A stretch of 64,000 bases of DNA from an uncultured Actinomycetota bacterium (GCA_963835405.1 CAWIFV010000013.1:78271-142270), one strand, 5' to 3'. Positions 11,046 to 61,413 are shown, counted from the first letter of the stretch. Numbers and translations: made by a program. The notes: generated from the sequence alone by a model not told the origin.

Positions 11046-11050
11046 AACGC

Positions 11051-20997: not shown

Positions 20998-22132
20998 CGC
21001 GGACGTTATCGCAGCGCCAGGTCGTCCTCGGCGTCCCGGGCCAGCCGCGAGACGGGCACCGGGTCGTCGAAACCGCGGATGACCTGCGGGCCCGAGCGGC
21101 GTCGACGCGGCGACGATCCGCGAGCCGCTCGACGACAGCCTGCGAGACGAGGACGTCACCCGCACTCGGCGAGGGCGACCAGGCGCGCGGCCAGGTTGAC
21201 CACCGGACCGAAGTAGTCGCCGTCGAGCGCCAGGGCAGTGCCGACGGTGACCCCGGCCCGGGCGTCGAGACCCCGCTCCCGGGCCGCACGCACGAGGTCG
21301 TCCGCGACCGCCACCGCCGAGACCGCGTCGTGGGTGACGTACATGACGGCGTCGCCGATGAACTTCATCAGCCGGCCGCCGTGGTCCTGCACGACGTCGG
21401 CGGCGATCTCCTCGAACCGGGTGAGCAGCTGGGACAGTCCGTCCATGGTGAGCTGCTGGGTCAGGCCGGTGAAGCCGCACAGGTCCGCGAAGCCGACGGC
21501 CACCCGGATACCGCTCTCGTCGACGCTCTCCCAGCTCTCGGTCCGCTCGAAGTGCATGCGGGCCGACTCGATGTGGTGGCGGAACAGCACGTCGAGCGCC
21601 CGGCCCAGCTCCGGCACGACGGTGGCGACCCCGGCGAAGGACTTGGCGGTGGCCAGCTCGCTGCCGGAGATCGTCACCGACATGTCGGGCAAGTTGCCGC
21701 GGACGTCGTGCCCAGCGCGTCGCCGAGGCGGGCGAGGGAGGAGCCCATGACGCGGGCGAGCCCGAGCACGGGTGGGAGGCCGAGGACGTCGACCAGGAAC
21801 AGGGCGGTGCGGAGCACGGCGACGTCGTCGGGGGAGGCGACCGCGGAGCCGGGGTCGGCCTCGACCAGGCCGAACGCCCGCCAGAGCGCCCGCACCGTGT
21901 CGGGAGGGGCGTCGATGTGCTCGGCGACCTCGTCGAGGGTCAGCTGGTCGCGCCCGGGGCGGATGACCCGGTCGCCGGCAAGGGCGAACAGCCGGCCGCG
22001 GGCGTGCGCGGCCACCATCTCCTCGATCGTGCAGCCCTGCTCGACGAGGAAGGCGAGGAGCTCGCGGCGCTCGGCAGCGCCGGGCGAGTCTGGTTCGTAC
22101 AGCCCGGCGGCGGCGAACGCCTCCAGGTCCAC
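20998..22132 (-). CDS. Class III adenylate/guanylate cyclase with N-terminal regulatory domain; at least two frameshifts, 3' end uncertain
   Basis: Catalytic core ...VGFADLCGFTGLTQQLTMDGLSQLLTRFEEIAADVVQDHGGRLMKFIGDAVMYV...NLAARLVALAECG (ORF 21156..21692). The N-terminal domain is in ORF 21674..22132. C-terminal continuation DVLVSQAVVERLADRR is in a third frame. Confidence 0.5.
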
Positions 22133-24347: not shown

Positions 24348-25895
24348 TCAGGGTTGGGCGGCCCGCGTCGCGCCGGCGGCGTCGTCCGCCCAGTCGAGGA
24401 CGGGCTGCGGGTAGACCGACAGCGCCACGGTCGCGGCGAGAGCGACCCCGAGGCCCGCGACAACCGGCGTGGAGCGCGGTGCGAGGACGGTCGGCTCCCG
24501 GCCGTCCTCTTCGCCACCGGCCGGCCGGCCGGTGGCGAAGAGGACGGCCGTGACCCGCAGGTAGTAGGCAAGCCCGATGACGGTGTTGACGGCCGCGATG
24601 ATCGCCAACCAGGTGGCACCGCCGTGGACGGCGTCCCGAAGCACGACGACCTTGGCGAACAGGCCGGCGACCCCCGGCGGCAGACCGGCGAGGGCAGTGA
24701 GGAACAACCCGAAGACGACGGCCAGGACGGGTGAGCGCCGGACCAGCCCGCGCGCGTCAGCGATGGCGCCCCGGGGCTCGCGCCGGACGATCGCGGCGAC
24801 GCAGGCGAAGGCACCGAGGTTCATCGCGACGTAGACGGCGAGGTAGGTGAGCGTCGCCTGCGCGGCGAGGCGCATCTCGGCGGGCACCCGGCCGCCGCTG
24901 GTCGCCGCGACCCCGAGGGGCACCAGCATGTAGCCGGCCTGGGCGACGGTGGACCACGCGAGCAGCCGGACCAGGTGCCACTGCCGGAGAGCGACGAGGT
25001 TGCCCACGGTCATCGTCACCGCGGCCAGCACGGCCACGACGGGTCCCCATACGTCGGCGTAGGGGCGGAAGGCGTCGAGCAGCAGCACGAGCAGCCCGGC
25101 GAAGCCGGCCGCCTTGGACGCCGTGGACAGGAACGCGGCGACCGGCACCGGAGCGCCCTGATAGGTGTCCGGAACCCAGAAGTGGAAGGGCACCGCGGAG
25201 ACCTTGAAGGCGAAGCCCGCGATGACGAGGACGACAGCGGTGGCGGCGACGGCGGACTTCGACCCACCCGCCTGGTGCACCGGTCCGAGCGCCGCCGCGA
25301 TCCGGTCCACCTGGAGGCTGCCGGTGACGCCGTAGATCATCGCCATGCCGTAGACCGTGATCCCGGTGGAGACGACGGAGAAGAGGAAGAACTTGAGCGC
25401 GGCCTCGCTGCCGCGCGGGTCGCCCCGGCGCAGCCCGACGAGCACGAACGCGGGCAGTGAGACGACCTCGAGGGCGACGACGAGTGACAGGAGGTCGCGA
25501 GCCGCCGCGAGCACGAGCATGCCGGTGACGGAGGCGAGCAGGAGGAAGTGGAACTCCCCCGGAGCGAGCCGATGCTCGACCACGGTCGTGACGGACAGCA
25601 GCAGGACGACGACGAGAGCGAGCAGGACGAGCACCTGGAAGAACGCCGTGAACCCGTCGGCGACGTAGGAGCAACCCCCGTCCGGGAAGCACAGCGTCCG
25701 CCGGGGTGACCGCCCGTCGACCGGCAGCCAGACCGCGAAGCCCAGGGCAGCCACTGCACCCGCCAGCGACAGACCGCTGAGGACCTCCGGCTTGCGCCTG
25801 TCGATGAACAGGTCGGCGAGCAGGACGACGACCGCCCCCACCGCGAGCGCGAGCGACGGTGCCAGCGCCAGGTAGTCGATGCTCTGGATCTTCAT
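24348..25895 (-). CDS. nuoN: Complex I-like antiporter subunit NuoN (second set)
   Basis: Start MKIQSIDYLALAPSLALAVGAVVVLLADLF overlaps the nuoM2 stop (ATGA). Intact polytopic Mrp-like subunit. Confidence 0.85.
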   Translation of the reverse strand: MKIQSIDYLALAPSLALAVGAVVVLLADLFIDRRKPEVLSGLSLAGAVAALGFAVWLPVDGRSPRRTLCFPDGGCSYVADGFTAFFQVLVLLALVVVLLLSVTTVVEHRLAPGEFHFLLLASVTGMLVLAAARDLLSLVVALEVVSLPAFVLVGLRRGDPRGSEAALKFFLFSVVSTGITVYGMAMIYGVTGSLQVDRIAAALGPVHQAGGSKSAVAATAVVLVIAGFAFKVSAVPFHFWVPDTYQGAPVPVAAFLSTASKAAGFAGLLVLLLDAFRPYADVWGPVVAVLAAVTMTVGNLVALRQWHLVRLLAWSTVAQAGYMLVPLGVAATSGGRVPAEMRLAAQATLTYLAVYVAMNLGAFACVAAIVRREPRGAIADARGLVRRSPVLAVVFGLFLTALAGLPPGVAGLFAKVVVLRDAVHGGATWLAIIAAVNTVIGLAYYLRVTAVLFATGRPAGGEEDGREPTVLAPRSTPVVAGLGVALAATVALSVYPQPVLDWADDAAGATRAAQP

Positions 25896-27397
25896 CCGAG
25901 CACCCCCCGCACCGCGGTCTCGCTCATGCCCAGCACCAGTCGGGGCCACAAGCCGACCGCGACGGTCAGCACCACGAGGGGCACCCACGCGGCGAGGTCG
26001 GCGGCGGTGGTGTCGGGCACGGCGGCCTCCCGCCATCGCGCCACGACCAGCCCGAAGTCGACCCGGCGCAGCATGGCGACGAAGTAGCCGACGGTGACGA
26101 CGGTGCCGAGACCGGCCACGACCATCGCGGTGAGGAACAGCGGTCGCGCCAAGGTGGCCGCCGGCGACCAGGCGCCGAGCATCGCGAGCATCTCGCCCCA
26201 GAACCCGGCCAGGCCCGGGAGGCCCAGGCTCGCCACGGCGGCGAACACCGTCAGGCCGCCGAGCGCGGGGGTCTTGGCCAGCATCCCGCCGCCGAGCTCG
26301 TCCATGTCGCTGGTGTGGAAGCGCTCCTTCACGCCGCCGACCAGGAAGAACAGCAGACTCGTGATCAGGCCGTGCGCGATGTTGCCGATGAGTGCCCCCT
26401 GGACGCCGGTCGGCGTGAGCGTCGCGATCCCGAGCAGGACGAACCCCATGTGACCGACGCTCGAGAACGCGATCAGCCTCTTGAGGTCCCCGGCCGGGGC
26501 GCGCGCGATCGCCAGGCAGGCCAGGGTCGCGTAGGCGATGCCCACCACGGCGAGGGCCGCGAGGGCGGGCGCGGCCCGCCGGGCACCGTCGGGCACGGCG
26601 GTGATGGCGATCCGGACCAGGCCGTAGGTGCCCATCTTGAGCAGGAGGCCGGCCAGGAGCACCGAGCCGACCGTCGGTGCCTCGGTGTGCGCGTCCGGGA
26701 GCCAGGTGTGCAGCGGCCACATGGGGCTCTTGATGCCGAAGCCGAGCAGCAGCAGCACGAACGCGAGCAGCTGGGCGCCGGCGCCGATGCCGAAGCCGTG
26801 CGCGGCACGCAGCGCAACCATGTCGAAGGTGCCGGCGCTCGCGTAGATGACGAGGAAGCCGACGAGCATCAGCGCCGACCCGAAAAGCGTGAAGAGGATG
26901 AACTTCGTGGCCGCAGCGGCCCGGCCGGAGCCGCCCCACACCGCGATCAGGAAGTACATCGGGATGAGCACGACCTCGAAGAAGAGGAAGAACACGATGA
27001 GGTCGAGGGCGACGAAGGTGCCCAGAACGCCGACCTCGAGCAGCAGCACGAGCTGCAGCAACTGCGGCACCCGGCCCGCTTCGGGGGGCGAGCCGACCGT
27101 CCAGAGCACGCACAGGACGGTCAGAAGGGTGGTGAGCAGGACCAGGGGCAGGCTGATGCCGTCGACACCGAGGTGGAAGCGGACGTCGATCGCGGGGATC
27201 CACCGGGCGTCGACGACGTGCTGCATGTGGTCGGCGGCGCCGAAGTCGAACCGCGCCGCGACCACGGCGGAGACGACCAGCGCGCCGCCGCTGGCGCCGG
27301 CCGCCACGACCGTCGCCACGCGGTCGGACAGCCGCGGCACGAACAGCGCAAGGGCGCCGAGCGCGGGCAGGCCGAGCAGGACCGGCAGCAGCGTCAT
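25892..27397 (-). CDS. nuoM: Complex I-like antiporter subunit NuoM (second set)
   Basis: Start [19 protein letters not shown] at 27397 overlaps the nuoL2 stop. Intact. Confidence 0.85.
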   Translation of the reverse strand: MTLLPVLLGLPALGALALFVPRLSDRVATVVAAGASGGALVVSAVVAARFDFGAADHMQHVVDARWIPAIDVRFHLGVDGISLPLVLLTTLLTVLCVLWTVGSPPEAGRVPQLLQLVLLLEVGVLGTFVALDLIVFFLFFEVVLIPMYFLIAVWGGSGRAAAATKFILFTLFGSALMLVGFLVIYASAGTFDMVALRAAHGFGIGAGAQLLAFVLLLLGFGIKSPMWPLHTWLPDAHTEAPTVGSVLLAGLLLKMGTYGLVRIAITAVPDGARRAAPALAALAVVGIAYATLACLAIARAPAGDLKRLIAFSSVGHMGFVLLGIATLTPTGVQGALIGNIAHGLITSLLFFLVGGVKERFHTSDMDELGGGMLAKTPALGGLTVFAAVASLGLPGLAGFWGEMLAMLGAWSPAATLARPLFLTAMVVAGLGTVVTVGYFVAMLRRVDFGLVVARWREAAVPDTTAADLAAWVPLVVLTVAVGLWPRLVLGMSETAVRGVLG

Positions 27398-29253
27398 GCG
27401 GCAACCGCCACCGAGACGGAGACCACCACGACGAGGACGCCGACGACGAGGGCGCTGAGGTAGGCCTGCACGTTCCCGTTCTGCAGCCGGCGGAGCCCCC
27501 CGCCGGCGAGCGCGGCCGACCGGCCGGTGCCGACGACGGTCGCGTCGAGACCCCGCCGGTCGGTCACGAGAACCGCCCGGCCCACCGCCTGCGCCGGCCG
27601 GACCACGGCCGCGGCGTAGAGCTCGTCGACCCAGAACGCCCGCTGCAACGGTCGCGCCGCGCGCCCCAGCGCCAGCACCGGGTCGTCGGCCGGGCGGCGG
27701 CGGTGCAGCGCGGCGACCGCGGCCACCGCGAGGAGGGCGACGGCCGTCGCGAGCACGACGCCGACCCAGCCGACGTCCAGCTCCGCGCTGCCTGCCGGGG
27801 CAGCCATCCATCGGGACACGCCGTACGACGAGGGCAGGAGCGGCAGGCCGAGCGCGACGGCCAGCGCGGCGAGCAGCACGAGCGGACCGGTCATGACGGG
27901 AGGCGACTCGTGCAGTGCCGACTCCGGCACGCGCGCGGCGCCGCGGTAGGTGCCCAGGAAGGTGCGGACCACCAGCCTGGTGACGTAGGCCGCGGTCACG
28001 AAGACGGTCGCGAGGCCGGTCGCGAAGACGGCGACCCCCAGCGCGCCGCCCCGGTCGAGAGCGGCAGCGAGGATCCCGTCCTTGCTGAAGGCGCCGGCGA
28101 ACGGCGGCAGGCCGGCCAGCGCGCCCGCCCCCACGAGGGCGGTCCAGAACGTGACGGGCATCGCCCGCCGCAGCCCGCCCATCTCGCTCATGAGGTTGGT
28201 CCCGACCGCGCGGAGCACCGACCCGGCGGCGAGGAAGAGCAGGGCCTTGAACGCGGCGTGGGTGAGCAGGTGCCAGACCCCCGCGGTCCAGCCATGGACG
28301 GACAGCCCGGCCGCCATGTAGGCCAGCTGGCTCACCGTCGACCAGGCCAGGACCCGTTTGAGGTCGTCGTCGGCGAGGGCCGCGAGCGCCGCCCCCAGCA
28401 TGGTGACGCACGCGAGGATGCCGAGCACGGTGAGGGCGACGGGGGCGGCGAGGAAGACCGGGTAGAGCCGGGCGACGAGGTAGATGCCGGCCGCCACCAT
28501 CGTGGCCGCGTGGATGAGAGCGCTGACGGGCGTCGGGCCGGCCATCGCGTCGGGCAGCCAGACGTGCAGCGGGAACTGCGCGCTCTTGCCGACGACACCG
28601 CAGAGCAGCAGCAGCGCCCCCGCGGTCACGGTCGCATGCGGCAACGATGCGGCCCGTGCGCTGACGTCGCCGATGTCGAACGTGCCGGCACCCAGACCCA
28701 GGGCGAAGATGCCGAAGAGGAAGCCGGTGTCACCGAGGCGCGTGGTCACGAATGCCTTGACCGCCGCGGCCCGGGCACCCTCGGTCTGCCAGTAATGGCC
28801 GATGAGGAGGTAGGAGCACAGGCCCATGACCTCCCAGCCGATGAGCAGCTCGAACAGGTCGCTGGCGACGACGACGAGCAGCATGGCGGCCGTGAACAGC
28901 GAGATCTCCGCGGCGTAGACGCGGTAGCGCGGGTCCCCCGCCATGTAGGCGATCGAGTAGACCTGCACGAGGAGAGCGACCACGCACACCATGACCGCGA
29001 CGACCGCGGCCAGGCCGTCGACCCGGGTCCCGACGTTCAGGACCAGACCACCGATCGGGGACCAGTCCGTCGCCGACTCGTGCACGGCTGCCGGGTCGGT
29101 CTCCACCGCGGCGACCAGCGCGACCGCGACGCCGAGGGCCCCGACCGCACCCGTGACGGCGATCCCCGCCGGCCAGCGCCGGAGCGGGCCGAACAGGCCG
29201 AGCACCGCCGCGAGCGCGGGCAGTGCGGGCAGCAACCATGCCCAGCCGGTCAC
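27394..29253 (-). CDS. nuoL: Complex I-like antiporter subunit NuoL (second set)
   Basis: ORF track, 619 aa, intact. Motif [22 protein letters not shown]. Confidence 0.85.
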
Positions 29254-29600
29254 GGCGCTTCCGCCCCCGTCGACTCGACGGGCTGGCGCGGGTCCCGGTC
29301 GGCGAGCTGGGTGAGTTCGTCGATGGCAACGGTGTGGCGCAGCCTGAACACGGACAGGACGATCGCGAGCCCGACCCCGACCTCGGCCGCCGCGATCACC
29401 ACGATGAACAGCGCGAACACCTGCCCGCCGTGCAGCGTGTCCTTGAACCAGGCGTCGAAGGCGACGAGGTCGAGATTGGCCGCGTTGAGCATCAGCTCGA
29501 CCGCCATCAGCACGGCCACTGCGTTGCGGCGGGCGAGCACGCCGTAGACGCCCACCCCGAAGAGCAGCGCCGACAGAGCGACGGCGAGGGACAGATGCAT
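29250..29600 (-). CDS. nuoK: NuoK (second set)
   Basis: ORF track. ...[24 protein letters not shown]... Confidence 0.85.
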
Positions 29601-30139
29601 CAGGGCCGCTCCGCGTCGGCGGCCCGGTCGCCGGGCTGCCCCCGGGTCAGGACGACGGCGCCCACGAGGGCCGCCAGCAGAAGCACGCTCGCCACCTCGA
29701 AGGGCAGCACGAAGTACCGGAAGACCGACTCGCCCAGCACGCGGCCGTCACCGACGGCGGTGCCGTGGACGTCGACGTAGGCACTCCGGAACGCCGACAC
29801 CATCAGGACGGCGAGCAGCCCCCCGGTCGACAGTCCGGCCAGCGCGGCGACGGGCCGGTTGGCGCTGTCGAGCTCCTGCGACCGGCCGACCGGCGCGCGC
29901 GTCAGCATCGCGCCGAAGAGCATGAGCACGACGATGGCCCCGATGTAGATGAGCACCTGGACCCATGCGACGAACTCCGCGGTCAGGACCAGGTAGCAGC
30001 CGGCCAGCGCCCCGAAGCACACCACCAGCCAGAGCGCGGCGTGGATGACGTTGCGCACGGTGACGACCAGCACGGCGGATGCGAGGCAGAGAACCGCGAG
30101 CAGGCCGAAGACGACGTCGGCTCCCGTCACCGCGCTCAC
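29600..30139 (-). CDS. nuoJ: NuoJ (second set)
   Basis: GTG start [19 protein letters not shown] overlaps the nuoI2 stop (GTGA). 179 aa. Confidence 0.8.
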
Positions 30140-30747
30140 GGAGCCGCCTCGTCCGGGGGCGCGGGGCCCGCGTCCGCCTCCGCCGCCTGCTCCGCGGTCG
30201 CGGGTACGTCGGCGGCGTCGCGTGGCGCGCGGCGCGACGCCGGGGCGCCGCCCGCCTCCTTCGCCGGCTCCGCGTTCTCGTCGTCCGCCGGTGGTGCGGG
30301 CACGGTCCACATCCAGTCGCGCAGCCGGTCGCGCTCGTGGGTGAGGCCGAGGATGTCGTCGTCGGCGTACTCGAACTCCGGCGACCAGAACAGCGCGTCG
30401 AACGGGCACACGTCGATGCAGATGCCGCAGTACATGCACAGCGCGTAGTCGATGGCGAAGCGGTCCAGCACGTTGCGCGTGCGCGGCCGCGCCCCCTCCG
30501 ACGCCGGCGGCATCGTCTCCTTGTGGGAGTCGATGTAGATGCACCAGTCCGGGCACTCCCGCGCGCACAGCATGCACACGGTGCAGTTCTCCTCGAGCAA
30601 GGCGATGACGCCGCGGCTGCGCGGCGGCAGCTCGGGCCGCTGGTGCGGGTACTCCTGGGTGACCGAGGGCTGCGTCATCGTGCGCAGCGTCACCGCCAGC
30701 CCCTGCACCAGCCCCTTGCCGGGCACCTTCCGCTTCTCCTCGCTCAC
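30136..30747 (-). CDS. nuoI: NuoI, 2x[4Fe-4S] ferredoxin subunit (second set)
   Basis: ORF track. Two CxxCxxCxxxCP motifs ([24 protein letters not shown]). Confidence 0.85.
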
Positions 30748-30793
30748 CCGTCCACCTCACTGCGGGGGTACCGGCTCCGCCGGCTTCGCCGGA

Positions 30794-31750
30794 TCACGTT
30801 GTTACCCGGACGACGCCGGTCAGGGCGATCTGCGCGAGCGCGGCCGGCACCAGCGCCGCCCAGGCGAACTTCTGCAGCTGGTCGGCCCGCAGCCGTGGAT
30901 AGCTCACCCGCAGCCAGATGACGACGAAGGCGAGGAGGAACGTCTTGATCAGGAGCCACAGCCAGCCGAGCTCGTGCTCCAGGAACGGCCCCTTCCAGCC
31001 GCCGAGGAACAGCACCGCCGTGAGCGCGGAGAAGACGACGATGCCGGCGTACTCGGAGAGGATGAACAGCCCGAACCGCAGCCCGGTGTACTCGGTGAAC
31101 GGGCCGAACACGATCTCGCTGTCGGCCACGGGCATGTCGAACGGCGGCCGGCGCAGCTCGGCCAGCGCCGCCGTGAAGAACACCACGGCGCCGACCCCCT
31201 GGTAGGGCAGCCACCACCACCGCCAGGCGTGCGCGATGCCGTCGAGCGACAGCGTTCCGGCCGCCATCGCGACGCTTGCCGCCGCGAGGACGAGCGGCAG
31301 CTCGTAGGCCATCAGCTGCGCGCCGGCACGCAGCCCGCCGAGCAGCGAGTACTTGTTCGCGCTCGACCAGCCGGCCATGAGCACGCCGATGACACCGACG
31401 CTGACGACCGCGAGCGCGAAGAAGACGCCGACCGACAGGTCGTGGGCGCTCTGCCCCGGCCCGACCGGGATCGTGATCAGCACGAACAGGTAGGGAAGGA
31501 GAGCGACGGCGGGCGCGAGCTCGAACACCCGGCGGTCGGCCCGCGCGGGGACGACGGCCTCCTTCTGGGCGAACTTCACCCCGTCCGCGACGAGCTGGGC
31601 CCAGCCGTGGAAGCCGCCGGCGTACATCGGTCCCAGGCGGGACTGCATGTGGGCCATCGCCTTGTGCTCGAGCTGCCCGACGAGCAGCGGCACGGTGAGG
31701 AAGACGAGCAGGCAGCCGAGGAGCTTGCCCACCACCTCGAGCGCGGTCAT
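30794..31750 (-). CDS. nuoH: NuoH (second set)
   Basis: Start [17 protein letters not shown] overlaps the nuoC2 stop (ATGA). 318 aa polytopic. Confidence 0.8.
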   Translation of the reverse strand: MTALEVVGKLLGCLLVFLTVPLLVGQLEHKAMAHMQSRLGPMYAGGFHGWAQLVADGVKFAQKEAVVPARADRRVFELAPAVALLPYLFVLITIPVGPGQSAHDLSVGVFFALAVVSVGVIGVLMAGWSSANKYSLLGGLRAGAQLMAYELPLVLAAASVAMAAGTLSLDGIAHAWRWWWLPYQGVGAVVFFTAALAELRRPPFDMPVADSEIVFGPFTEYTGLRFGLFILSEYAGIVVFSALTAVLFLGGWKGPFLEHELGWLWLLIKTFLLAFVVIWLRVSYPRLRADQLQKFAWAALVPAALAQIALTGVVRVTT

Positions 31751-32341
31751 CCGCCCGACTCCGGGCCCCACTCGTCCGGCGCCGGTACGCCGGGCGGCAG
31801 CATCCGGCGCCGGCCCGGTGCGGCGGCTTCGGTGTCGTGGTCGGACTCCCCCGGCTCCTTCGCTCCCGGCCAGGCCTTGGCGACCCGCGACGCGAGCACG
31901 AACTCCTTGCGGAGCGGATGCCCCTCGAAGCCGTCCGGCAGCAGCAGGGGGACGAGGTTGGGGTGGCCGTCGAAGACCACACCGAACATCTCGAACGTCT
32001 CCCGCTCGTGCCAGTTGGCCCCGGCCCAGACGCCGGACAGGGTCGCCAGCCGCGCCACCGTCACGGTCGACGGACGTCCGCAGCCGCAGGTGGTGGCGGT
32101 ACCGGTGCGACCAGACGTGCGCGACGACCGCGAGCCGGGCCGGGCCGTCGGCAACCGTCGCGTCGTACGCCGACAGCCAGTCGAAGTACGTGCACGCGAT
32201 GCGGTCGTCGTCCCGGGCGACGGTTGCGGCCTCGACCCACCGGTCCGGTGAGACGTCGACGGTCAGCTGGCCGAACGTCACCTCGACGGTCGCGCCTTCG
32301 ACGGCGGCCGCCACGACGTCCGCGAGGTCCTCAACGGCCAT
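31747..32341 (-). CDS. nuoC: NuoC 30-kDa subunit (second set); net 1-bp frameshift near 32100-32150
   Basis: N-terminus [30 protein letters not shown]...YFDWLSAYD is in one frame. The signature [38 protein letters not shown] is in ORF 31747..32154. The span is 595 nt, not a multiple of 3. It is only about 198 aa, so it is not NuoD and not a NuoCD fusion. Confidence 0.7.
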
Positions 32342-32855
32342 CGCGGGCTCCCGGCGGCCGGACCAGCGGCGCTCGCAGCGCCTCGGCCCCGACCGAGCGG
32401 ATGTGGTGCGCCGGGGTGCGGTAGCGGTCCGCGAGGGACTCGCGACCGATCTTCTCCTGCAGCCGCAGGATGCCGTGCAACAACGCCTCCGGCCGCGGCG
32501 GGCACCCGGGCACGTAGACGTCGACCGGGATGATCTGGTCGACACCCTTGGTCACGCAGTAGGAGTCCCAGTAGGGACCACCGCAGTTGCTGCACGACCC
32601 GAAGGAGATGACGTACTTCGGCTCCGGCATCTGCTCGTAGAGCCGCTTGATCGCCGGCGCCATCTTGTCGGTCACGGTGCCGGAGACGACCATGAGGTCG
32701 GCCTGGCGCGGGCCCGGAGCAAACGGGATGACACCGAGCCGGATGAAGTCGTGCCGGGCCATGGACGTCGCAATGAACTCGATCGCGCAGCACGCGAGGC
32801 CGAAGTTGAACACCCACAGGCTGTAGCGGCGGCCCCAGTTGAGGACGAAGCGCAT
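32331..32855 (-). CDS. nuoB: NuoB, [4Fe-4S] N2 subunit (second set); start may lie somewhat upstream
   Basis: [27 protein letters not shown]...[10 protein letters not shown]...[11 protein letters not shown] carries the four conserved Cys. Confidence 0.8.
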
Positions 32856-32926
32856 CGGCGCGGGGGCCAGCCGGCTCGCCGTCCCCAGGCCCTCGATCCG
32901 CACGTCGGTCGGGCCACGGCCGAGGC

Positions 32927-33298
32927 TCAGACCCACGTCAGCACGCCCTTCCGCCAGGCGTAGAGCAGGCCGACCGCGAGGAACCCGAGAAAGACGAACA
33001 TCTCCGCCAGCGACAGGGCGCCGTAACCGGGGAGGGCGAACACCGTCGCCCACGGGAAGAGGAAGACCGCGTCGACCGCGAAGACGACGTACAGGAAGGC
33101 GTAGACGTAGTAGCGGACCTGCGACTGCGACCAGTCGACCCCGACCGGGTCCACGCCCGACTCGTAGGTCAGCAGCTTCTCCGGCGTGGACCGCCAGGGG
33201 CGGAGCATCCGGTTGGCGCCCAGCCCGACCACGACGAACCCCACCCCGAGCACGCCCAGCAGGGCCACGAGGGCGTAGCCACCGAAGTACCCGCCCAC
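32927..33298 (-). CDS. nuoA: NuoA (second set)
   Basis: GTG start with a GAAGGGGA RBS. ...[29 protein letters not shown]...[22 protein letters not shown]. Confidence 0.7.
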
Positions 33299-33389
33299 GA
33301 TGTCCCCTTCGCCGGTGTGCAGATAGGGCCATTCGACCCTCCCGGGGGAGCCTATTGAACGTAGACTTGGCGGCAAGGAGGGGCTGCTA

Positions 33390-35303
33390 GTGGCCAGCAA
33401 GGAAGTTCGTCAGCAAGACCGGGTGATCATCCGCTTCGCTGGCGACTCCGGCGACGGCATGCAGCTCACCGGTGACCGTTTCACCTCGGAGACGGCGGAG
33501 TTCGGCAACGACATCTCGACGTTGCCAGACTTCCCGGCGGAGATCCGGGCTCCGGCAGGGACCTTGCCGGGGGTGTCGGCGTTCCAGCTGCAGTTCGCCT
33601 CGCACGAGGTGATGACGCCCGGCGACGCGCCGGACGTGCTGGTGGCGATGAACCCGGCGGCGTTGAAGGCGAACCTCGCGGACGTGCCCGCCGGCGGCGA
33701 CCTGATCGTGAACACGGACGAGTTCACCAAACGGAACCTCGCGAAGGTCGGCTATGCGGCGAACCCGCTGGAGGACGGCTCGCTGGAGTCGTTCCGGGTG
33801 CATGCGATCCCACTCACCTCGCTGACCGTCAAGGCGCTCGAGGGGTTCGAGATCACGCGCAAGGACGCGGAGCGGGCGAAGAACATGTTCGCGCTGGGGC
33901 TGCTGTCGTGGCTCTACAGCCGCCCGACCGAGACGACGCTGGCGTTCCTGGAGCGCAAGTTCGCCGACTCGCCGGAGCTCGCGCGGGCCAACGTGACCGC
34001 GTTCACCACCGGCTGGAACTTCGGTGAGACGACCGAGGCCTTCGCCGTGCAGTACGAGGTCAGCCCGGCGGTGATGCCGGCCGGGCTCTACCGCAACATC
34101 ACCGGGAACACCGCGCTGGCCTACGGGCTGCTCGCGGCGAGCGTGCAGTCGCGGCTGCCGCTGTTCCTCGGCTCCTACCCGATCACCCCGGCCTCGGACG
34201 TGCTGCACGAGCTGGCCAAGCACAAGCGGTTCGGGGTGCGCACGTTCCAGGCCGAGGACGAGATCGCCGGGGTGGGCGCGGCGCTGGGAGCGGCGTTCGG
34301 TGGCTCGCTGGGCGTGACGACGACATCCGGGCCGGGCGTGGACCTCAAGAGCGAGACGATCGGCCTGGCCGTCGCCCTGGAGCTGCCGCTGGTGGTGTGT
34401 GACATCCAGCGGGCCGGGCCGTCGACGGGGATGCCGACCAAGGCCGAGCAGTCCGACCTGCTGCTGGCGATGTTCGGCCGGCACGGCGAGGCGCCGGTGC
34501 CGATCGTGGCGCCACGGTCCCCCTCGGACTGCTTCGACGCGGCGATCGAGGCGGTGCGGATCGCCGTCACCTACCGCACACCGGTCTTCCTGCTCTCCGA
34601 CGCCTACCTGGCGAACGGCTCGGAGCCGTGGCTGGTGCCCGACGTCGACACCCTGCCCGGCATCGACGTGACCTTCACCACCGAGCCCAACCACGTCGAC
34701 GCCGACGGCAAGCCCGAGTTCTGGCCGTACCTGCGGGACCCGGCGACGCTGGCCCGGCCGTGGGCGCTGCCGGGTACGGCGGGCCTCGAGCACCGCATCG
34801 GCGGCATCGAGAAGGCCGACGGGTCGGGCAACATCTCCTACGACCCGAGCAACCACGACACGATGGTCCGGCTGCGGCAGGCGAAGATCGACGGGATCGC
34901 CGGCGACATCGCCCCGCTGCAGGTGGACGACCCCGACGGCGACGCCGACGTCCTCGTGCTCGGCTGGGGGTCGACGTACGGGCCGATCGGCGCAGCGGTC
35001 CTCGCGGTGCGCGCCGACGGCGGCAAGGTCGCGCACGCGCACCTGCGCCACCTCAACCCGTTCCCGGCCAACACCGCCGACGTGCTGGCGCGCTACCGGC
35101 GGGTGCTGGTGCCGGAGATGAACCTCGGCCAGCTGGCCCTGCTCATCCGCGCCCGGTTCCTCGTCGACGCGATCTCCTTCACCCAGGTGCGCGGCATGCC
35201 GTTCCGGGCCGCCGAGCTCGCCGCCACGATCCGCCACGTGGTCGACGCCGGGCCGGACGACATCGACAACCGGGCACACCAGACCGAAGGAGCGTCGGCG
35301 TGA
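33390..35303 (+). CDS. korA: 2-oxoglutarate:ferredoxin oxidoreductase subunit alpha (KorA)
   Basis: ORF track, 637 aa. Starts GTG after an AAGGAGG RBS. Fused pyruvate:ferredoxin-oxidoreductase-like gamma and alpha domains, as in mycobacterial KorA. Confidence 0.9.
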   Translation: MASKEVRQQDRVIIRFAGDSGDGMQLTGDRFTSETAEFGNDISTLPDFPAEIRAPAGTLPGVSAFQLQFASHEVMTPGDAPDVLVAMNPAALKANLADVPAGGDLIVNTDEFTKRNLAKVGYAANPLEDGSLESFRVHAIPLTSLTVKALEGFEITRKDAERAKNMFALGLLSWLYSRPTETTLAFLERKFADSPELARANVTAFTTGWNFGETTEAFAVQYEVSPAVMPAGLYRNITGNTALAYGLLAASVQSRLPLFLGSYPITPASDVLHELAKHKRFGVRTFQAEDEIAGVGAALGAAFGGSLGVTTTSGPGVDLKSETIGLAVALELPLVVCDIQRAGPSTGMPTKAEQSDLLLAMFGRHGEAPVPIVAPRSPSDCFDAAIEAVRIAVTYRTPVFLLSDAYLANGSEPWLVPDVDTLPGIDVTFTTEPNHVDADGKPEFWPYLRDPATLARPWALPGTAGLEHRIGGIEKADGSGNISYDPSNHDTMVRLRQAKIDGIAGDIAPLQVDDPDGDADVLVLGWGSTYGPIGAAVLAVRADGGKVAHAHLRHLNPFPANTADVLARYRRVLVPEMNLGQLALLIRARFLVDAISFTQVRGMPFRAAELAATIRHVVDAGPDDIDNRAHQTEGASA

Positions 35304-36379
35304 CCGCCCCGGCGCGCGGCGGTCGCCGCGGCCTCGACCTGGTGCCGGCCACCGACGCCCCCGCGTCGAAGAAGGACTACACCTCCGACCAGGAGGTCCG
35401 CTGGTGCCCCGGCTGCGGGGACTACGCGATCCTCGCGGCGGTCCAGTCCTTCTTGCCCGAGCTCGGGCTCAAGCGGGAGAACATCGTCTGCATCTCCGGG
35501 ATCGGCTGCGCCGCCCGCTTCCCCTACTACCTCAACACCTACGGCATCCACTCCATCCACGGCCGGGCGCCCGCCATCGCGACCGGGCTCGCCACCGCCC
35601 GCCCCGACCTGTCGGTGTGGGTGATCGGCGGTGACGGCGACTTCACCTCGATCGGCGGCAACCACCTCATCCACGCCCTACGGCGCAACGTCAACCTCAA
35701 GCTGCTGCTGTTCAACAACCGCATCTACGGGCTGACCAAGGGCCAGTACTCGCCCACCTCCGAAGTCGGCAAGGTGACGAAGTCGACCCCGGTCGGCTCG
35801 GTGGACACGCCGTTCAACCCGGTGTCGCTCGCTCTCGGCGCCGAGGCGACCTTCGTCGCCCGCACCATCGACTCCGACCGCAAGCACCTAACCGCCGTCC
35901 TGCGCGCCGCCGCCGAGCATCGCGGTGCCGCGTTCGTCGAGATCCTGCAGAACTGCGACATCTTCAACGACGGCGCCTTCGACCTGCTCAAGAAGCCGGA
36001 CACCCGCGACACCGCAGTCGTTCGCCTCGAGCAGGACCAGCCCGTCCGGTTCGGCCCGCCCGCCGACGACGGCGCCGGCCAGAAGGGCGTCCGGCTGTCC
36101 CCGCGCGGAGGCCTCGAGGTCGTCGACGTCGACGCGGGCAACCGCGACGAGATGCTCGTCCACGACGCGCGGCACGACGAACCCTCGCTCGCCTTCATGC
36201 TCTCCCGGCTCGGCAACGTCGACGACGGTGTCACCCCCATCGGCGTCTTCCGGGCCGTCGAGCGACCCACCTACGACGACGAGGTCAACCACCAGCTCGA
36301 CGCGGCCGTCGCCGCCCAGGGCCGCGGCGACCTCGCCGCACTCTTCGCCTCCGGCGACACCTGGACCATCGGGCGCTGA
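35300..36379 (+). CDS. korB: 2-oxoglutarate:ferredoxin oxidoreductase subunit beta (KorB), TPP-binding
   Basis: GTG start overlaps the korA stop. CPGCGDY...GIGC... and GDGD TPP motif. Confidence 0.9.
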   Translation: MTAPARGGRRGLDLVPATDAPASKKDYTSDQEVRWCPGCGDYAILAAVQSFLPELGLKRENIVCISGIGCAARFPYYLNTYGIHSIHGRAPAIATGLATARPDLSVWVIGGDGDFTSIGGNHLIHALRRNVNLKLLLFNNRIYGLTKGQYSPTSEVGKVTKSTPVGSVDTPFNPVSLALGAEATFVARTIDSDRKHLTAVLRAAAEHRGAAFVEILQNCDIFNDGAFDLLKKPDTRDTAVVRLEQDQPVRFGPPADDGAGQKGVRLSPRGGLEVVDVDAGNRDEMLVHDARHDEPSLAFMLSRLGNVDDGVTPIGVFRAVERPTYDDEVNHQLDAAVAAQGRGDLAALFASGDTWTIGR

Positions 36380-36473
36380 CCCGCTCCACTCCCGAAAATG
36401 TTCGGTTTCGGCCGTCACCGGACACCCCGTCCCTCGTTGAACCGGGCGCGGGGGAGGCGAGAGGAGCGAACGC

Positions 36474-37124
36474 ATGGAGCGCACACCTCGGCGACGGCTG
36501 CACCGCAGCGCCGCCGTCTCGATGACCACCGTCGTGCTGTGCCTGGCCGGCGCCGGCCCTGCCCTGGCCGACGGCATCGACCTGCCGCTGCCGTCACCGT
36601 CACCGACGGTGACCGAGGCCACCGACCTGCCCCCGCTGCCGGAGCCCCTCCAGGACACCGTCGACCAGGCGTCCCAGACCCTCGGGATCGACGACGCCAC
36701 CGACGACTCGCAGCCGAAGCACCACCGGCAGAAGGTGACCGACAGCGCGCCGACCGTCACCGTGGACGTGTCGACATCAGCGCCCGCGCCCTCGGACCGG
36801 CCGGACAAGCACCGCTCCGCCCCAGCCGTCCCGGCTTCCCCCCAGCCGGTGACCGTGCCCGTCGGCGCCTGGCCGGGCCTGCGTACCGTGCCGGTCCAGT
36901 CGGCGCCGGTGACGGACGAACCGCCGGCGATCGCCCCGGCGCAGTCCGCCCCCACCACCACCGTCTATGACGCGGCCGCCTCGCTGCCCGCGCCGATCGA
37001 CCCGCGGGGCTGGGACCCGCGCATGACCATGGCGATCCTCGGGACCCTGCTCGTGGGCCTGCTGGCCGCCTTCCACCTCCGGCTCGCGCAGATCCGGGTC
37101 GGGGGCGGGCTCCTCCTCGGCTGA
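36474..37124 (+). CDS. Hypothetical Pro-rich secreted or membrane-anchored protein
   Basis: ORF track. Signal-peptide-like N-terminus (TTVVLCLAGAGPALA), Pro-rich repeats, C-terminal hydrophobic segment. Confidence 0.4.
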   Translation: MERTPRRRLHRSAAVSMTTVVLCLAGAGPALADGIDLPLPSPSPTVTEATDLPPLPEPLQDTVDQASQTLGIDDATDDSQPKHHRQKVTDSAPTVTVDVSTSAPAPSDRPDKHRSAPAVPASPQPVTVPVGAWPGLRTVPVQSAPVTDEPPAIAPAQSAPTTTVYDAAASLPAPIDPRGWDPRMTMAILGTLLVGLLAAFHLRLAQIRVGGGLLLG

Positions 37125-38242: not shown

Positions 38243-40010
38243 GTGGCGCGTCCGGTGCTCGTCGGCAACTGCTCGGGCTTCTACGGCGACCGGTTCGCCG
38301 CGATGCGGGAGATGCTCGACGGCGGCGACCTCGACGTTCTCACCGGTGACTACCTCGCCGAGCTGACCATGCTCATCCTGTTCCGCAGCAAGGCGAAGAG
38401 CCCGGACCGCGGGTACGCCACCTCCTTCGTCCGCCAGCTGGAGGAGTGCCTGGGCCTCGCCTGGGAGAAGGGGGTCCGCATCGTCGCCAACGCAGGTGGG
38501 CTCAACCCGGCCGCCTGCGCGGCAGCGGTGCGCGAGCTGGCCTCCCGGCTCGGGCTGCGGGTCAACGTCGCCCACGTCGAGGGCGACGACCTCATGGACC
38601 GCATCGGCGACCTGCGGGGTCCGGACGGCTCCGGACTGGCCAACCTCGACACCGGCGCCCCGCTGTCGCGCGAGCCGTTGACCGCCAACGCCTACCTCGG
38701 CGGCTGGGGCATCGCCACCGCCCTGGAGGCGGGCGCGCAGGTCGTCGTGACCGGCCGGGTCACCGACGCGGCCCTCGTCATCGGGTCGGCTGCGTGGTGG
38801 CACGGGTGGGCACGGGAGGACTGGGACGCCCTCGCCGGCGCCCTGGTCACCGGGCACATCCTCGAGTGCGGCGCGCAGGCGACCGGTGGCAACTACTCGT
38901 TCTTCACCGAGGTCCCCGGCGGGGAGCACCTCGGCTTCCCGCTCGCCGAGATCGCCTCCGACGGCAGCAGCGTCATCACCAAGCACCCGGGCAGCGGTGG
39001 CACCGTGACCGTCGGGACGGTCACGGCCCAGCTGCTCTACGAGATCGGCCCGCCCCGCTATCTCAACCCGGACGTGAGCGCGGACTTCTCGACCATCCGC
39101 CTCGAGCAGCAGGCGCCGGACCGGGTGCTCGTCGAGCGGGGTGCGGGGCAGCCCGCCGCCGCCCACGACCAAGGTGTGTCTCAACCTGCTCGGTGGCTTC
39201 CGGAACTCCATGACGTTCCTGCTGACCGGTCTCGACATCGAGGCCAAGGCCGACCTGGTCCGCCGCCAGCTCGCCCCCGCCCTCGCCGGTCTCGACTCGG
39301 TCACCTGGTCGCTCGCCCGCACCGACCGGGACGACCCGGAGACCAACGAGGCGGCGGTCGCGTCGCTGCGGGTCACCGTGAAGGACCCGGACGGCAAGCG
39401 CATCGGGCGGCCGTTCTCCTCGGCCGCGGTCGAGCTGGCGCTCGCGTCGTACCCGGGCGCCACGCTGACCTCGCCGCCCGGCGAGGCGAGCATGTACGGC
39501 GTCTACTGGCCCGCGGCTGTCGGCAACGACGTGGTCGAGCACGTCGTCGTCCTCGAGGACGGCCGTCGGGTCCCGGTCGAGCCACCGGCGACCACGGCGC
39601 CGGCGAGCCGGCTCCGGCCGCCCTTGACCGGCCCGCCCGCCCCCGGTGCACCCCCGGCCGGGGGCACGCTGCGGGCGCCGCTGGGCACGCTGGTCGGCGC
39701 ACGCAGCGGGGACAAGGGCGGCAACGCGAACGTCGGCGTGTGGGCTCGGACCGAGGACGCCTATCGATGGCTGTCCCGGGGACTGACGGTGGAGCGGTTC
39801 CAGGAGCTGCTCCCCGAGACCAAGGAGCTGCGGGTGGAGCGGCACGACCTCCCCAACCTGCTCGCGCTGAACTTCGTGGTCCACGGACTGCTCGGGGAGG
39901 GCGTGGCAGCCGGGACCAGGCAGGACCCTCAGGCGAAGGGGCTGGGCGAGTGGCTCCGTGCCAGGCACGTCCAGATCCCGCTCGCCCTGCTGGAGGAGGA
40001 GGGCGTGTGA
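38243..40010 (+). CDS. AtuA-like acyclic-terpene-utilisation family protein (DUF1446); 1-bp frameshift near 39150-39175
   Basis: N-terminal part is ORF 38243.. (MARPVLVGNCSGFYGDRFAAMREMLDGGDLDVLTGDYLAELTM...). C-terminal part is ORF 39141..40010 (PPPTTKVCLNLLGGFRNSMTF...). The span is 1768 nt, not a multiple of 3. Confidence 0.7.
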
Positions 40011-42834: not shown

Positions 42835-43515
42835 TCAGGCGTCGCTGCCGCTGTCGCCACTGGAGTCACCGCTGGTGTCGGTGACGGTGTCCTCGGAGTC
42901 GTCCTGCACGTCGTCGTCGCCGTCGTCGCTGACGTCGTCCGCGCCGTCACCGCCGTCCTCGACGTCGGCGCCCGCGCCGCCGTCGAGGGAATCCTCGCCC
43001 TCGTCGCCGTCGAGGGAGTCCTCGCCGTCGTCGCCCTGCAGGTCGTCGCTGCCGTGACCGCCGGACATCTGGTCGTCGCCGGCGCCGCCGCTCATGGTGT
43101 CGTCCCCACCGCCGCCGAACATGTCGTCGTTGTTGGCCCCGCCGTCCATGGTGTCGTCGCCGGCCCCGCCGTGCTCCACGTCGGCGCCACGACCGCCGTG
43201 GATGTCGTCGCTGCCGTCGCCGCCGAAGACGTGGTCGCTACCGGCGCCGCCGAAGACGACATCGTGCCCGCCTGAGCCGCAGATCAGGTCGTTGCCGCCG
43301 CGCGCACGGACCACGTGGCCGGCGGCCCGGATCTCGATGACGTCCCGGTGGGAGGTGCCGTGAACCACGGCCGGCGCATGTGCGCCGACCACCATCGTCG
43401 CCGCCTTGCCGTGGCAGGTGGGCGAACCGCTCGCAGCGCCGGCGGGCAAGGGGTTGTAGGCGAACAGGCTGATGGGCGCGGCCAGCGCGAGCGTGAGGAA
43501 GCGGGAACGTCGCAT
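42835..43515 (-). CDS. Secreted Ca2+-binding repeat protein (RTX / hemolysin-type GGxGxD beta-roll-like repeats) with a poly-Asp/Gly/Ser C-terminal tail
   Basis: Internal start MRRSRFLTLALAAPISLFAYNPLPAGAASG is a signal peptide. Repeats GGNDLICGSGGHDVVFGGAGSDHVFGGDGSDDIHGGRGADVEHGGAGDDTMDGGANNDDMFGGGGDDTMSGGAGDDQMSGGHGSDDLQGDDGED. Confidence 0.6.
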   Translation of the reverse strand: MRRSRFLTLALAAPISLFAYNPLPAGAASGSPTCHGKAATMVVGAHAPAVVHGTSHRDVIEIRAAGHVVRARGGNDLICGSGGHDVVFGGAGSDHVFGGDGSDDIHGGRGADVEHGGAGDDTMDGGANNDDMFGGGGDDTMSGGAGDDQMSGGHGSDDLQGDDGEDSLDGDEGEDSLDGGAGADVEDGGDGADDVSDDGDDDVQDDSEDTVTDTSGDSSGDSGSDA

Positions 43516-44579: not shown

Positions 44580-46130
44580 CGGCGTCCTCATCGCACGAAC
44601 GGTACGGCGCGCGTCGGCCAGGTCGAGGACCGGCTGCGGGAACATGCCCAGCACCACGGTGACCGCGACCGCGAGGGCGAGCGCGGCGGCGGAGGCGAGC
44701 CGGGAGCAACGACGACCGGCCCGTCCGACCGACCGGCTCGTGGAAGAACATCATGCACGATGACGCGGACGTAGAAGAAGGCGGCCATCGCGCTCGAGCA
44801 TCGCGCCGACGATGACCAGCGGGGTGGCCCCGCCGCTGATACGCGGCCGAGAAGACGGCGAACTTGCCGGTGAACCCGCTGGTGAGCGGGATGCCGGCGA
44901 GCGCGAGCAGGAACAGCGCGAAGACGCCGGCGATGAGCGGGGAGCGCCGGCCGAGACCCGCCCACCGGGACAGGTGCGTGGCCTCGCCGTCGGGGTCGCG
45001 CACCAGGGTCAGGATGGCGAACGCGCCGACCGTCGTCAAGCCGTAGGCGAGCAGGTAGAACAGCGAGCCCGGACAGGCCGGCCGGTTCAGCGCGATGACC
45101 CCGACGAGGATGAAGCCGGCGTGCGCGACCGAGGAGTAGGCGAGCATCCGCTTGACGTCGGTCTGGGTGACCGCGAACAGCGAGCCGACCGACCATCGTG
45201 AGGATGGCGACGGCCCAGACGACCGGCCGCCAGTCCCAGCCCAGGCCGCCGAACGCGACGTAGAACACCCGCAGCAGCGCGCCGAAGGCGGCGACCTTGG
45301 TCGCCGCCGCCATGAGCGCGGTGATCGGCGTCGGCGCGCCCTGGTAGACGTCGGGGGTCCAGCAGTGGAACGGCGCGGCGCCGACCTTGAACAGCAGCCC
45401 GACCGCCGAGCAGCGCCAGGCCGAGGAAGAGCAGCGTGTCGCCGTGGGTGCCGGTGACCGCGGCGTCGTGGATGCCGCCGAGCGACACCGTGCCGGCGTA
45501 GCCGTAGAGCAGGGCCAGGCCGTAGAGGAAGAAGGCCGAGGAGAACGCGCCGAGCAGGAAGTACTTGACCGCCGCCTCCTGCGACAGCAGCCGGCGGCGC
45601 CGGGCCAGGCCGCACAGCAGGTAGAGCGGCAGCGACAGCACCTCGAGCGCCACGAACATGAGCAGCAGGTCGTTCGCCGCGGGGAAGAGCAGCATGCCCG
45701 CGACGGCGAACATCACCAGCGGGAAGACCTCGCTCTGGGCGCGGCCGGCGGCCGACATCTGCCCGCTCCGTCCGGCGAGCCCGGGCACCGCGGATGCCTG
45801 GGCGGCGAACGCGCCGCCGCCCCCTCCGGGCGACCGGTCCGCGACGAGCAGCACGCTGGCGACCGCGATGACCGCGATCGTGCCCTGGAGGAACAGCGTC
45901 GGGCCGTCGACGGCGATCGCGCCGCCGCCGTGACTGCTCGGTGCCGGCGAGGACGCAGACCGCGACGAGCGCGCCGACGAGGCCGGCCAGGCGAGAGGCC
46001 GAGCTGCGTCGGTCCACCGGCACCCGCGGGGCGCGAACGCCTCGACGAGGACGCCCACGAGCGCCGCGACGCACGACGATCAGCATCGGCAGCGAGCGCC
46101 GAGTAGGAGATCGAGGGCGCGGTGAAGTCG
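44580..46130 (-). CDS. nuoN: NADH-quinone oxidoreductase subunit N (main nuo operon); heavily frameshifted, boundaries approximate
   Basis: NuoN segments are scattered over all three minus frames (GVLVEAFAPRG..., ...FVALEVLSLPLYLLCGL..., MAAATKVAAFGALLRVFYVAFGGLGWDWRPVVWAVAILTMVG, ...IAGVFALFLLALAGIPLTSGFTGKFAVFSAAY, ...GMFPQPVLDLADA). At least 5 frame changes. Confidence 0.5.
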
Positions 46131-49670: not shown

Positions 49671-49678
49671 CCAGGTCC

Positions 49679-49978
49679 TCAGTACTTGAGCAGGTTGGCG
49701 TCGTCGACCGAGGCCGACCGGCGGGTGCGGAAGATGGTGATGATGATCGCCAGCCCGATGACCACCTCGGCCGCGGCGACCACCATGACGAAGAACGCGA
49801 TGATCTGGCCGTCGAGGTCACCGTTGATCCGGCTGAACGTGACGAGCGTCAGGTTGACCGCGTTGAGCATGAGCTCGACGCACATGAAGACGACGATGGC
49901 GTTGCGGCGGACGAGCACGCCGACGGCGCCGATCGTGAACAGCATCGCGGACAGGTACAGGTAGTAGTTGGCGCTCAC
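49679..49978 (-). CDS. nuoK: NADH-quinone oxidoreductase subunit K (main operon), intact
   Basis: ORF track, 99 aa. ...[28 protein letters not shown]... Confidence 0.85.
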
Positions 49979-50804: not shown

Positions 50805-50809
50805 GCGGT

Positions 50810-55111: not shown

Positions 55112-55159
55112 CGGGACGCGCTCCGGCGGCGAAGAGGGTCGACGCCATCGGGTCGAACG

Positions 55160-61409: not shown

Positions 61410-61413
61410 GGCG

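Follow-up and report, generated by a model that had tools for sequence, protein, structure and literature searches.

A second nuo gene set without NuoD, divergent from korAB in an uncultured actinomycete, as a putative ferredoxin-fed proton pump

The 64,000-nucleotide stretch of DNA from an uncultured Actinomycetota bacterium analyzed here (GCA_963835405.1, CAWIFV010000013.1:78271-142270; hereafter, the window) carries on its minus strand, from position 33298 down to 24348, ten consecutive genes for homologs of the complex I subunits NuoA, B, C, H, I, J, K, L, M, and N. We call this set nuo2 to distinguish it from the canonical operon, nuo1, that lies 11 kb away in the same window; nuo2 stands back to back with korAB, the genes for a 2-oxoacid:acceptor oxidoreductase. 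Judged by gene order and sequence relationships, nuo2 is an actinomycete operon that has already been published, found again here in a lineage outside Streptomyces. Its genes are under purifying selection, and no gene for NuoD, the 49-kDa subunit, accompanies them here or in any related locus that we inspected. Our tentative reading is that nuo2 encodes a putative ferredoxin-fed proton pump that would obtain NuoD in trans.

Gene content and conservation of the nuo2 cluster

The window has a G+C content of about 72%, and gene calling relied on third-position GC together with a codon model. Each of the ten products matches Pfam and NCBIfam models for its subunit. The series begins with nuoA2 (32927-33298; 123 residues; Pfam Oxidored_q4), nuoB2, for the subunit that holds cluster N2 (32331-32936; 201 residues; TIGR01957 and NF005012 above cutoff), and nuoC2 (31747-32341; 198 residues after repair of a frameshift considered below; Complex1_30kDa matched over positions 1-123 of 124). 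It continues through nuoH2, for an ND1-type subunit (30794-31750; 318 residues; Pfam NADHdh, 335 bits), nuoI2, for the subunit with two [4Fe-4S] clusters (30136-30747; 203 residues; Pfam Fer4 families and NuoI NCBIfam models), nuoJ2 (29600-30139; 179 residues; Pfam Oxidored_q3), and nuoK2 (29250-29600; 116 residues; Pfam Oxidored_q2). It closes with three antiporter-like subunits encoded by nuoL2 (27394-29253; 619 residues; TIGR01974 NDH_I_L, 517 bits against a cutoff of 408, with Pfam Proton_antipo_N and Proton_antipo_M), nuoM2 (25892-27397; 501 residues; TIGR01972 NDH_I_M, 490 bits against a cutoff of 264), and nuoN2 (24348-25895; 515 residues; Pfam Proton_antipo_M and TIGR01770 NDH_I_N above cutoff), after which comes corA. 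Four-nucleotide ATGA or GTGA overlaps join nuoC2 to nuoH2, nuoI2 to nuoJ2, nuoK2 to nuoL2, nuoL2 to nuoM2, and nuoM2 to nuoN2; the overlap of nuoJ2 and nuoK2 is 1 nucleotide, those of nuoA2 with nuoB2 and of nuoB2 with nuoC2 are 10 to 11 nucleotides, and the sole gap, 46 nucleotides, separates nuoH2 from nuoI2.

A tblastn search with the NuoD of nuo1 (NuoD1), which is the only NuoD in the 64 kb, found no NuoD-like frame in the cluster; nuoE, nuoF, and nuoG occur only in nuo1, and every open reading frame (ORF) between nuoA2 and nuoN2 has been assigned. The cluster accordingly encodes 10 of the 11 core subunits of a complex that lacks the NADH-oxidizing N-module, with NuoD absent in cis, and does not have the canonical 14-gene composition in which NuoD and the NuoE/F/G module are encoded together with the rest. 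The original prediction, made from this DNA alone, had described ten tightly coupled genes, a second nuo set devoid of NuoD, NuoE, NuoF, and NuoG, and no NuoD concealed in overlapping frames, and on all three points the family models, the junctions, and the searches agree with it. A NuoCD fusion or a hidden NuoD was ruled out by tblastn, in the window and in 80 related loci, and by the gene content of Streptomyces loci.

The nuo1 and nuo2 paralogs are 33-54% identical. NuoC2 is 55-75% identical to its counterparts in Streptomyces and other nuo2 loci and 37% identical to NuoC1 and, because of these identities and a shared ...PPGVP tail, we regard nuo2 as orthologous to the nuo2 operon of Streptomyces rather than to nuo1. 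Moody et al. reported that the Streptomyces nuo2 genes are contiguous except for nuoD2 and are expressed as one operon (PMC3765725), and Pinatel et al. in 2021 reported the same for the nuo2 genes of S. ambofaciens (PMC8388888); an orphan nuoD2 is reported to lie elsewhere in Streptomyces genomes (PMC3765725, PMC8388888). Du et al. in 2022 called the function of nuo2 unclear and suggested hybrid complexes with nuo1 (PMC9239103), and Nuo2 proteins have been detected by proteomics (PMC9739823). With S. coelicolor SCO4599-SCO4608 and S. ambofaciens nuoA2-nuoN2 the cluster in the window shares the gene order, the lack of D, E, F, and G, the signature tail of NuoC2, a coexisting 14-gene nuo1, and korAB located upstream on the other strand. 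It differs in that korA lies 91 bp from nuoA2, whereas about 4.4 kb separates them in Streptomyces, in that NuoC2 has 198 residues and lacks a low-complexity tail of about 400 residues, in the corA gene that follows nuoN2, and in the host, which is Mycobacteriales/Frankiales-like, with best matches to 70-90% identical proteins from metagenome-assembled genomes (MAGs).

NuoC2-like proteins of about 190 to 215 residues form more than 7000 database clusters, and a scan of one genome per species placed NuoC2 relatives in at least 597 species. Eighty species loci were examined, together with as much as 10 kb of flank per side; represented among them are Streptomyces, Streptacidiphilus, Embleya, Kribbella, Actinomadura, Nonomuraea, Actinoallomurus, Spirillospora, and several MAGs of Mycobacteriales and Actinomycetota. 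A recurrent order in these loci is A2-B2-C2-H2-I2-J2-K2-L2-M2-N2, and the portion from nuoH2 to nuoN2 is complete in 60 of the 71 loci that have enough downstream flank. In none of the 80 loci did tblastn with NuoD1 (E <= 0.01) return a NuoD-like sequence, so that the lack of NuoD first noted in the window is a conserved property of the family. The closest relative, a Mycobacteriales MAG (L002), reproduces the exact layout of the window, including the divergent korBA genes and the downstream corA. NuoC2 is present in all 80 loci, which were gathered through NuoC2 relatives, although one paper describes NuoC as missing; the Streptomyces gene between nuoB2 and nuoH2 encodes NuoC2 extended by about 400 residues of Ala/Pro/Glu-rich repeats (for example, 10001-11705 in locus L034 of Streptomyces lutosisoli), the extension beginning after the conserved ...PPGVP..WGP tail.

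Two groups depart from this layout. In Kribbella (L011, L022, L029, L033, L035, and L065) only nuoB2, nuoC2, and nuoH2 are left, with no nuoA2 or nuoI2 to nuoN2 within 10 kb, a NmrA/SnoaL or GNAT gene stands between nuoC2 and nuoH2, and NuoB2 is 79-86% identical to that of the window. These three subunits, which would form the shell of the quinone site, seem to have been kept on their own, a pattern implying that B2, C2, and H2 can work with partners encoded elsewhere. In Streptosporangiales-type loci (L003, L006, L008, L014, L017, L018, L023, L026, L047, L052, L062, L069, L072, and L076), 0.9 to 6.9 kb of unrelated genes separates nuoH2 from nuoI2; in the three for which genes were called (L003, L014, and L023) the insert consists wholly or mostly of genes on the reverse strand, which in L003, the single annotated locus, encode a major facilitator superfamily (MFS) transporter and xanthine-dehydrogenase-like subunits. 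The inserted genes of both groups were considered as the missing partners and rejected, those of the Streptosporangiales being reverse-strand MFS and xanthine-dehydrogenase-like genes and those of Kribbella being reverse-strand NmrA/SnoaL and GNAT genes.

Conserved residues, korAB, and the possible source of NuoD

Between the window and its closest relative, the ratio of nonsynonymous to synonymous substitution rates (dN/dS) is 0.10 to 0.28 for eight nuo2 genes, nuoC2 excluded, and 0.19 for korAB; the nuo2 genes are thus under purifying selection. The iron-sulfur chain N6a/N6b/N2 and the proton-pumping residues are both represented. Cys49, Cys50, Cys115, and Cys145 of NuoB2, the N2 ligands, are invariant in the 80 loci, as are all eight cluster cysteines of NuoI2 in 65 loci; the C-terminal tail of NuoI2 is acidic and nonconserved. 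Across 62 loci the Glu in the ELMLNAAN motif of NuoK2 is at least 97% conserved and that in AAAEVG, where Glu is the consensus, at least 60%. The transmembrane helix (TM) 5 Glu, TM7 Lys, TM8 Lys/His, and TM12 Lys/Glu motifs, which we take from established knowledge of complex I to be the proton-transfer residues, are visible in NuoL2, NuoM2, and NuoN2, the last having Glu in TM5 and Lys in TM7, TM8, and TM12.

Some features are peculiar to the family. The best PDB matches of NuoH2 are NdhA of NDH-1 and NuoH of complex I, with about equal scores; it keeps GWSS.NKYSLLG, EY.G, and PR.R.DQ, and the ER..Q.R.GP-type motif reads EH..Q.R.GP, with His for Arg. Its TM5-6 loop (31111-31140; residues ~204-213) has the form PFDxPVADSE in the comparison with 74 related loci, where NuoH, ND1, and NdhA have PFD.(P/A)E.E.E, and the first Glu gives way to a Val whose conservation within the NuoH2 family is 85% or more. 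A model of a NuoC2 ortholog gave a confident NuoC/NDUFS3 fold for residues 1-130. The C-terminal ~45 residues of NuoC2 (31747-31890) are nearly invariant, specific to NuoC2, and without a PDB sequence counterpart, and were low in confidence or disordered when modeled alone, as is expected of a tail that orders only within a complex; the tail is possibly an interface element of a Nuo2 complex. The nuo2 subunits score far better on Nuo/Ndh than on Mrp, Hyf, or MBH models, and a search of the cluster for marks of an Mrp or group 4 hydrogenase-type enzyme (MBH, Ech, or FHL) found neither MrpE/F/G nor a NuoD-like large hydrogenase subunit.

In solved structures of complex I, NDH-1, and MBH-type enzymes, it is the interface of NuoB and NuoD that houses the N2 or proximal cluster together with the substrate pocket, and NuoC packs on NuoD. 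Because NuoB2, NuoC2, and NuoH2 keep the canonical cores that these structures place around NuoD, we suggest that the missing 49-kDa subunit would be supplied in trans, either by NuoD1 or by an orphan nuoD2; nuoD1 (57049-58404, minus strand) is intact, its product is 94% identical to the NuoD of a relative, and it is the one candidate partner in the window. The remainder of the proposed enzyme would come from nuo2 itself, with NuoA, H, J, K, L, M, and N providing a full membrane arm, NuoB2 (cluster N2) and NuoI2 (N6a and N6b) an iron-sulfur connector, and NuoC2 a scaffold, and these subunits may come together as a complex I-like enzyme that reduces menaquinone and pumps protons. Since no N-module is encoded with the cluster, the most likely route of entry for electrons would be a low-potential ferredoxin acting as candidate donor at NuoI2, by analogy with NDH-1 and the Fpo-like enzymes, and this part of the proposal is the more speculative. 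KorAB would be one plausible source of reduced ferredoxin.

Precedents for such an arrangement are only partial. Cyanobacterial and chloroplast NDH-1, the Fpo-like enzymes, and the Nuo11 complexes of Moparthi and Hagerhall (PMC3144371) likewise have no NuoE/F/G, the same membrane arm, and the NuoB/NuoI iron-sulfur chain, and in those systems ferredoxin is the known or proposed donor; in NDH-1 and the Fpo-like enzymes, however, the NuoD homolog (NdhH or FpoD) is encoded with the other genes, and nuo2 has no accessory genes of the NdhS/O or FpoF/O type. The nNDH of Marinimicrobia, which lacks nuoDEF (PMC6143742), also is a second nuo-like set beside a canonical one and without NuoD but, compared by description, it belongs to another phylum, keeps NuoG, and as defined has no L to N subunits.

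The korAB genes are closest to nuo2 in the window. korA (33390-35303, plus strand), for the alpha subunit, encodes 637 residues (TIGR03710, 649 bits against a cutoff of 483), and korB (35300-36379, plus strand), for the thiamine pyrophosphate-binding beta subunit, encodes 359 residues; on the beta-subunit models korB gave E values of 4e-80 (NF008820) and 7e-76, and it reached 255 bits on TIGR02177, just below the subfamily cutoff of 262. A fused alpha subunit and a thiamine pyrophosphate-binding beta subunit make this a KorAB-type enzyme, as in M. tuberculosis, whose 2-oxoglutarate:ferredoxin oxidoreductase KorAB (Rv2454c/Rv2455c) also has two subunits and a fused alpha (PMC2773412), and a putative specificity for 2-oxoglutarate is suggested by resemblance to the enzymes of mycobacteria and Streptomyces (PMC2773412, PMC8981147). 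The nuoA2-korA spacer (33299-33389) is 91 bp long, very near the 90 bp first given for it; no regulatory motif, such as a Rex box, is common to the spacers of the window, L002, L028, and L003. korA, with or without korB, lies upstream on the opposite strand in 48 of the 64 loci with enough upstream sequence, which upholds the idea of korAB as a recurrent divergent neighbor; the tight pairing does not extend beyond the window and three relatives (L002, L003, and L028), the only loci in which the spacer is shorter than 250 bp, the distance elsewhere being typically 1.8 to 4.9 kb and up to 7.5 kb. The genes between korAB and nuo2 in S. coelicolor are those of the AbrC1-3 two-component system (PMC9739823, PMC9239103), and both KorA and the products of SCO4599-4608 reach far higher levels in S. 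coelicolor than in S. lividans (PMC8981147, PMC9739823), a faint hint of coregulation. The ORF that follows korB in the window (36441-37124) encodes a low-complexity, nonconserved membrane protein.

Several observations weigh against a ferredoxin-fed pump with NuoD in trans. The linkage to korAB is loose in most genomes, and in Kribbella, Streptacidiphilus, and five Streptomyces loci no korAB was seen within the flank examined. Because the entire segment (mce operon, rplJL, rplKA, nusG, nuo2, korAB, and nuo1) is a core region of strong synteny, the linkage is suggestive but weak evidence of coupling. A search for a ferredoxin gene found none within the 64-kb window, and NuoI2 has no conserved docking extension. 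To our knowledge, M. tuberculosis has korAB without nuo2. The occurrence of korAB in that species (PMC2773412) and the lack of a neighboring ferredoxin gene weaken the functional coupling to KorAB that was originally proposed. The search for NuoD in the source organism covers the 64-kb window, and with paralogs only 33-54% identical the fit of NuoD1 to B2, C2, and H2 is not obvious. When an orphan NuoD2 family was sought by a NuoD1-based search of representatives, by cluster names, and by three context look-ups, canonical operons and one unrelated orphan were obtained. This rare orphan, encoded in a Mycobacterium sp. MAG (GCA_050700595.1; L082, 4082-5392), is a NuoD paralog of 436 residues, 51% identical to NuoD1, whose gene stands alone between FBPase/GAPDH/phosphoribulokinase genes and hypF-hypC-hypE-hypD and outside any nuo operon.

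The absent genes also form one contiguous block, nuoD-E-F-G, all of which nuo1 could supply; an enzyme that borrows D might borrow E, F, and G as well and could still be driven by NADH. On a hybrid model, Nuo2 subunits would form no separate enzyme but replace their nuo1 paralogs and share NuoD, E, F, and G with them in an alternative NADH:menaquinone oxidoreductase that differs in its membrane arm and the shell of its quinone site. Such hybrids have been proposed in two Streptomyces papers (PMC3765725, PMC9239103), and the position of nuo1 only 11 kb away in the window and the retention by Kribbella of B2, C2, and H2 alone, with NuoB2 at 79-86% identity, would fit them. We nevertheless consider hybrid assembly rather unlikely, since at 33-54% identity many interfaces would have to stay compatible, since ten cotranscribed genes for every subunit other than D, E, F, and G look like a self-contained module, and since an IS110 element lies between nuoB1 and nuoC1 in the window.

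A further possibility, which was the favored interpretation in the original prediction, is that the enzyme is truly devoid of NuoD, a ferredoxin-driven pump that serves KorAB specifically and whose acceptor site is unconventional. The lack of a NuoD out to 10 kb in all 80 loci, the nearly invariant NuoC2 tail and the altered NuoH2 TM5-6 loop, both specific to the family, and the directly divergent korAB of the window and its three relatives are what one would expect of it. We think it improbable, given that solved structures put the N2 or proximal cluster and the pocket at the NuoB-NuoD interface, that B2, C2, and H2 retain canonical cores, that korAB is only loosely linked in most genomes, and that an orphan nuoD2 has been reported from Streptomyces (PMC3765725, PMC8388888). 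The last point makes NuoD in trans the better reading, and of the two acceptor arrangements first offered it is the borrowed NuoD, then given as the alternative, that fares better, and not the unconventional site. In its most specific form, in which there is no 49-kDa subunit at all, the N2 cluster of NuoB2, capped by NuoC2 and its invariant C-terminal tail, hands electrons to a noncanonical acceptor site, and the complex is a dedicated, energy-conserving outlet for ferredoxin that KorAB has reduced in aerobic actinomycetes, we would regard the idea as a long shot.

Frameshifts in nuoC2 and nuo1

The nuoC2 gene had been described as a frame of about 595 bp with a NuoC signature; its identity as NuoC stands, but it is not an intact gene as read, a one-base insertion having been overlooked. 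The 595-bp span is not divisible by 3, its N-terminal and C-terminal halves are in different frames, and a single extra base is present near 32053 by comparison with the orthologs (window, GGTGGCGCGGCTG; relatives, GG.GG.-CG.CT.). In the repaired protein all family-invariant residues are present on either side of the break. nuoC2 is the only member of nuo2 that is not intact: the nine other genes, korAB, and corA have no frameshifts, the comparison for nuoN2 being with its ortholog in L002.

We read this frameshift as most likely a sequence error and not as decay, because it consists of one inserted base with the invariant residues kept on both sides and because the same window holds many indels and the other nuo2 genes none. 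A decaying duplicate had been named at the outset as a finding that would undo the functional proposal, and on paper the nuoC2 frameshift is such a finding, although probably an erroneous one. If the lesion near 32053 were genuine, nuo2 would be a decaying, nonfunctional operon in the source organism, and the loss or splitting of parts of nuo2 in Kribbella and Streptosporangiales could be cited in the same sense. We give little credence to this view: the lesion is a lone one-base insertion flanked by preserved NuoC2 residues, the nine other genes are free of frameshifts, the dN/dS values given above are low, and the window carries a general signature of indel errors.

That signature is clearest in nuo1 (44616-61764, minus strand), in which all 14 genes from nuoA1 to nuoN1 were recognized by homology. 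The description of this operon as a complete canonical nuoA-N set 11 kb from nuo2 is correct as to its 14 genes and not as to their intactness, since it contains an IS110 element and about 87 frameshifting indels. The element (~59157-60817), with a transposase gene on the plus strand (59616-60794; DEDD_Tnp_IS110 and Transposase_20), occupies the short nuoB1-nuoC1 spacer, is absent from a syntenic relative (L081), and may be polar on nuoC1 to nuoN1. The indels, of one or two bases, fall within 43.7-55.3 kb, from nuoG1 through nuoN1 and into the next gene. Frame-aware alignment of L081 proteins to the DNA counted no frameshifts in nuoC1, nuoD1, and nuoK1, one each in nuoE1, nuoF1, nuoI1, and nuoJ1, 20 in nuoG1, 10 in nuoH1, 15 in nuoL1, 16 each in nuoM1 and nuoN1, and 6 in the downstream polyprenyl synthase gene, past the end of the operon. 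They comprise 58 insertions and 29 deletion-like events, a 2:1 bias toward insertion, with no association with homopolymers and, once frames are corrected, the nuo1 proteins are 76-88% identical in amino acids to those of L081. Because the indels are random, identity is preserved, and operon boundaries are ignored, the 43.7-55.3 kb interval looks like an unpolished, low-quality stretch of assembly rather than a site of gene decay. We discarded natural pseudogenization of nuo1 after the IS110 insertion as the chief explanation of the frameshifts, given a count of zero in nuoC1 and nuoD1 against 7.5 per kb beginning at nuoG1, the damage beyond the operon, the random indels, and the corrected identity of 76-88%.

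Isolated frame breaks also occur outside this zone, near 2164, 5485, 21690, 39146, and 42523. Two Mce genes are fused in one 842-residue ORF (4007-6535), an adenylate cyclase is broken into a regulatory ORF and a catalytic ORF (21156-22132), AtuA is broken into ORFs at 38243-39151 and 39141-40010, and the frame of an MFS gene changes at 42523. Between the MFS and polyprenyl synthase genes, at the edge of the low-quality zone, lies a gene for an RTX (HemolysinCabind) repeat protein (42835-43515); the same position in L081 has just a 102-residue ORF.

Significance of nuo2 for actinomycetes

The nuo2 genes are present in hundreds of actinomycete species, antibiotic producers included. To the published description of the operon we add that NuoC2 belongs to it, contrary to the gene lists of some papers, that the layout without NuoD is conserved far beyond Streptomyces, that the iron-sulfur chain and the pump residues are under strong constraint, and that korAB is a recurrent neighbor, directly divergent from nuo2 in a basal Mycobacteriales-like group.

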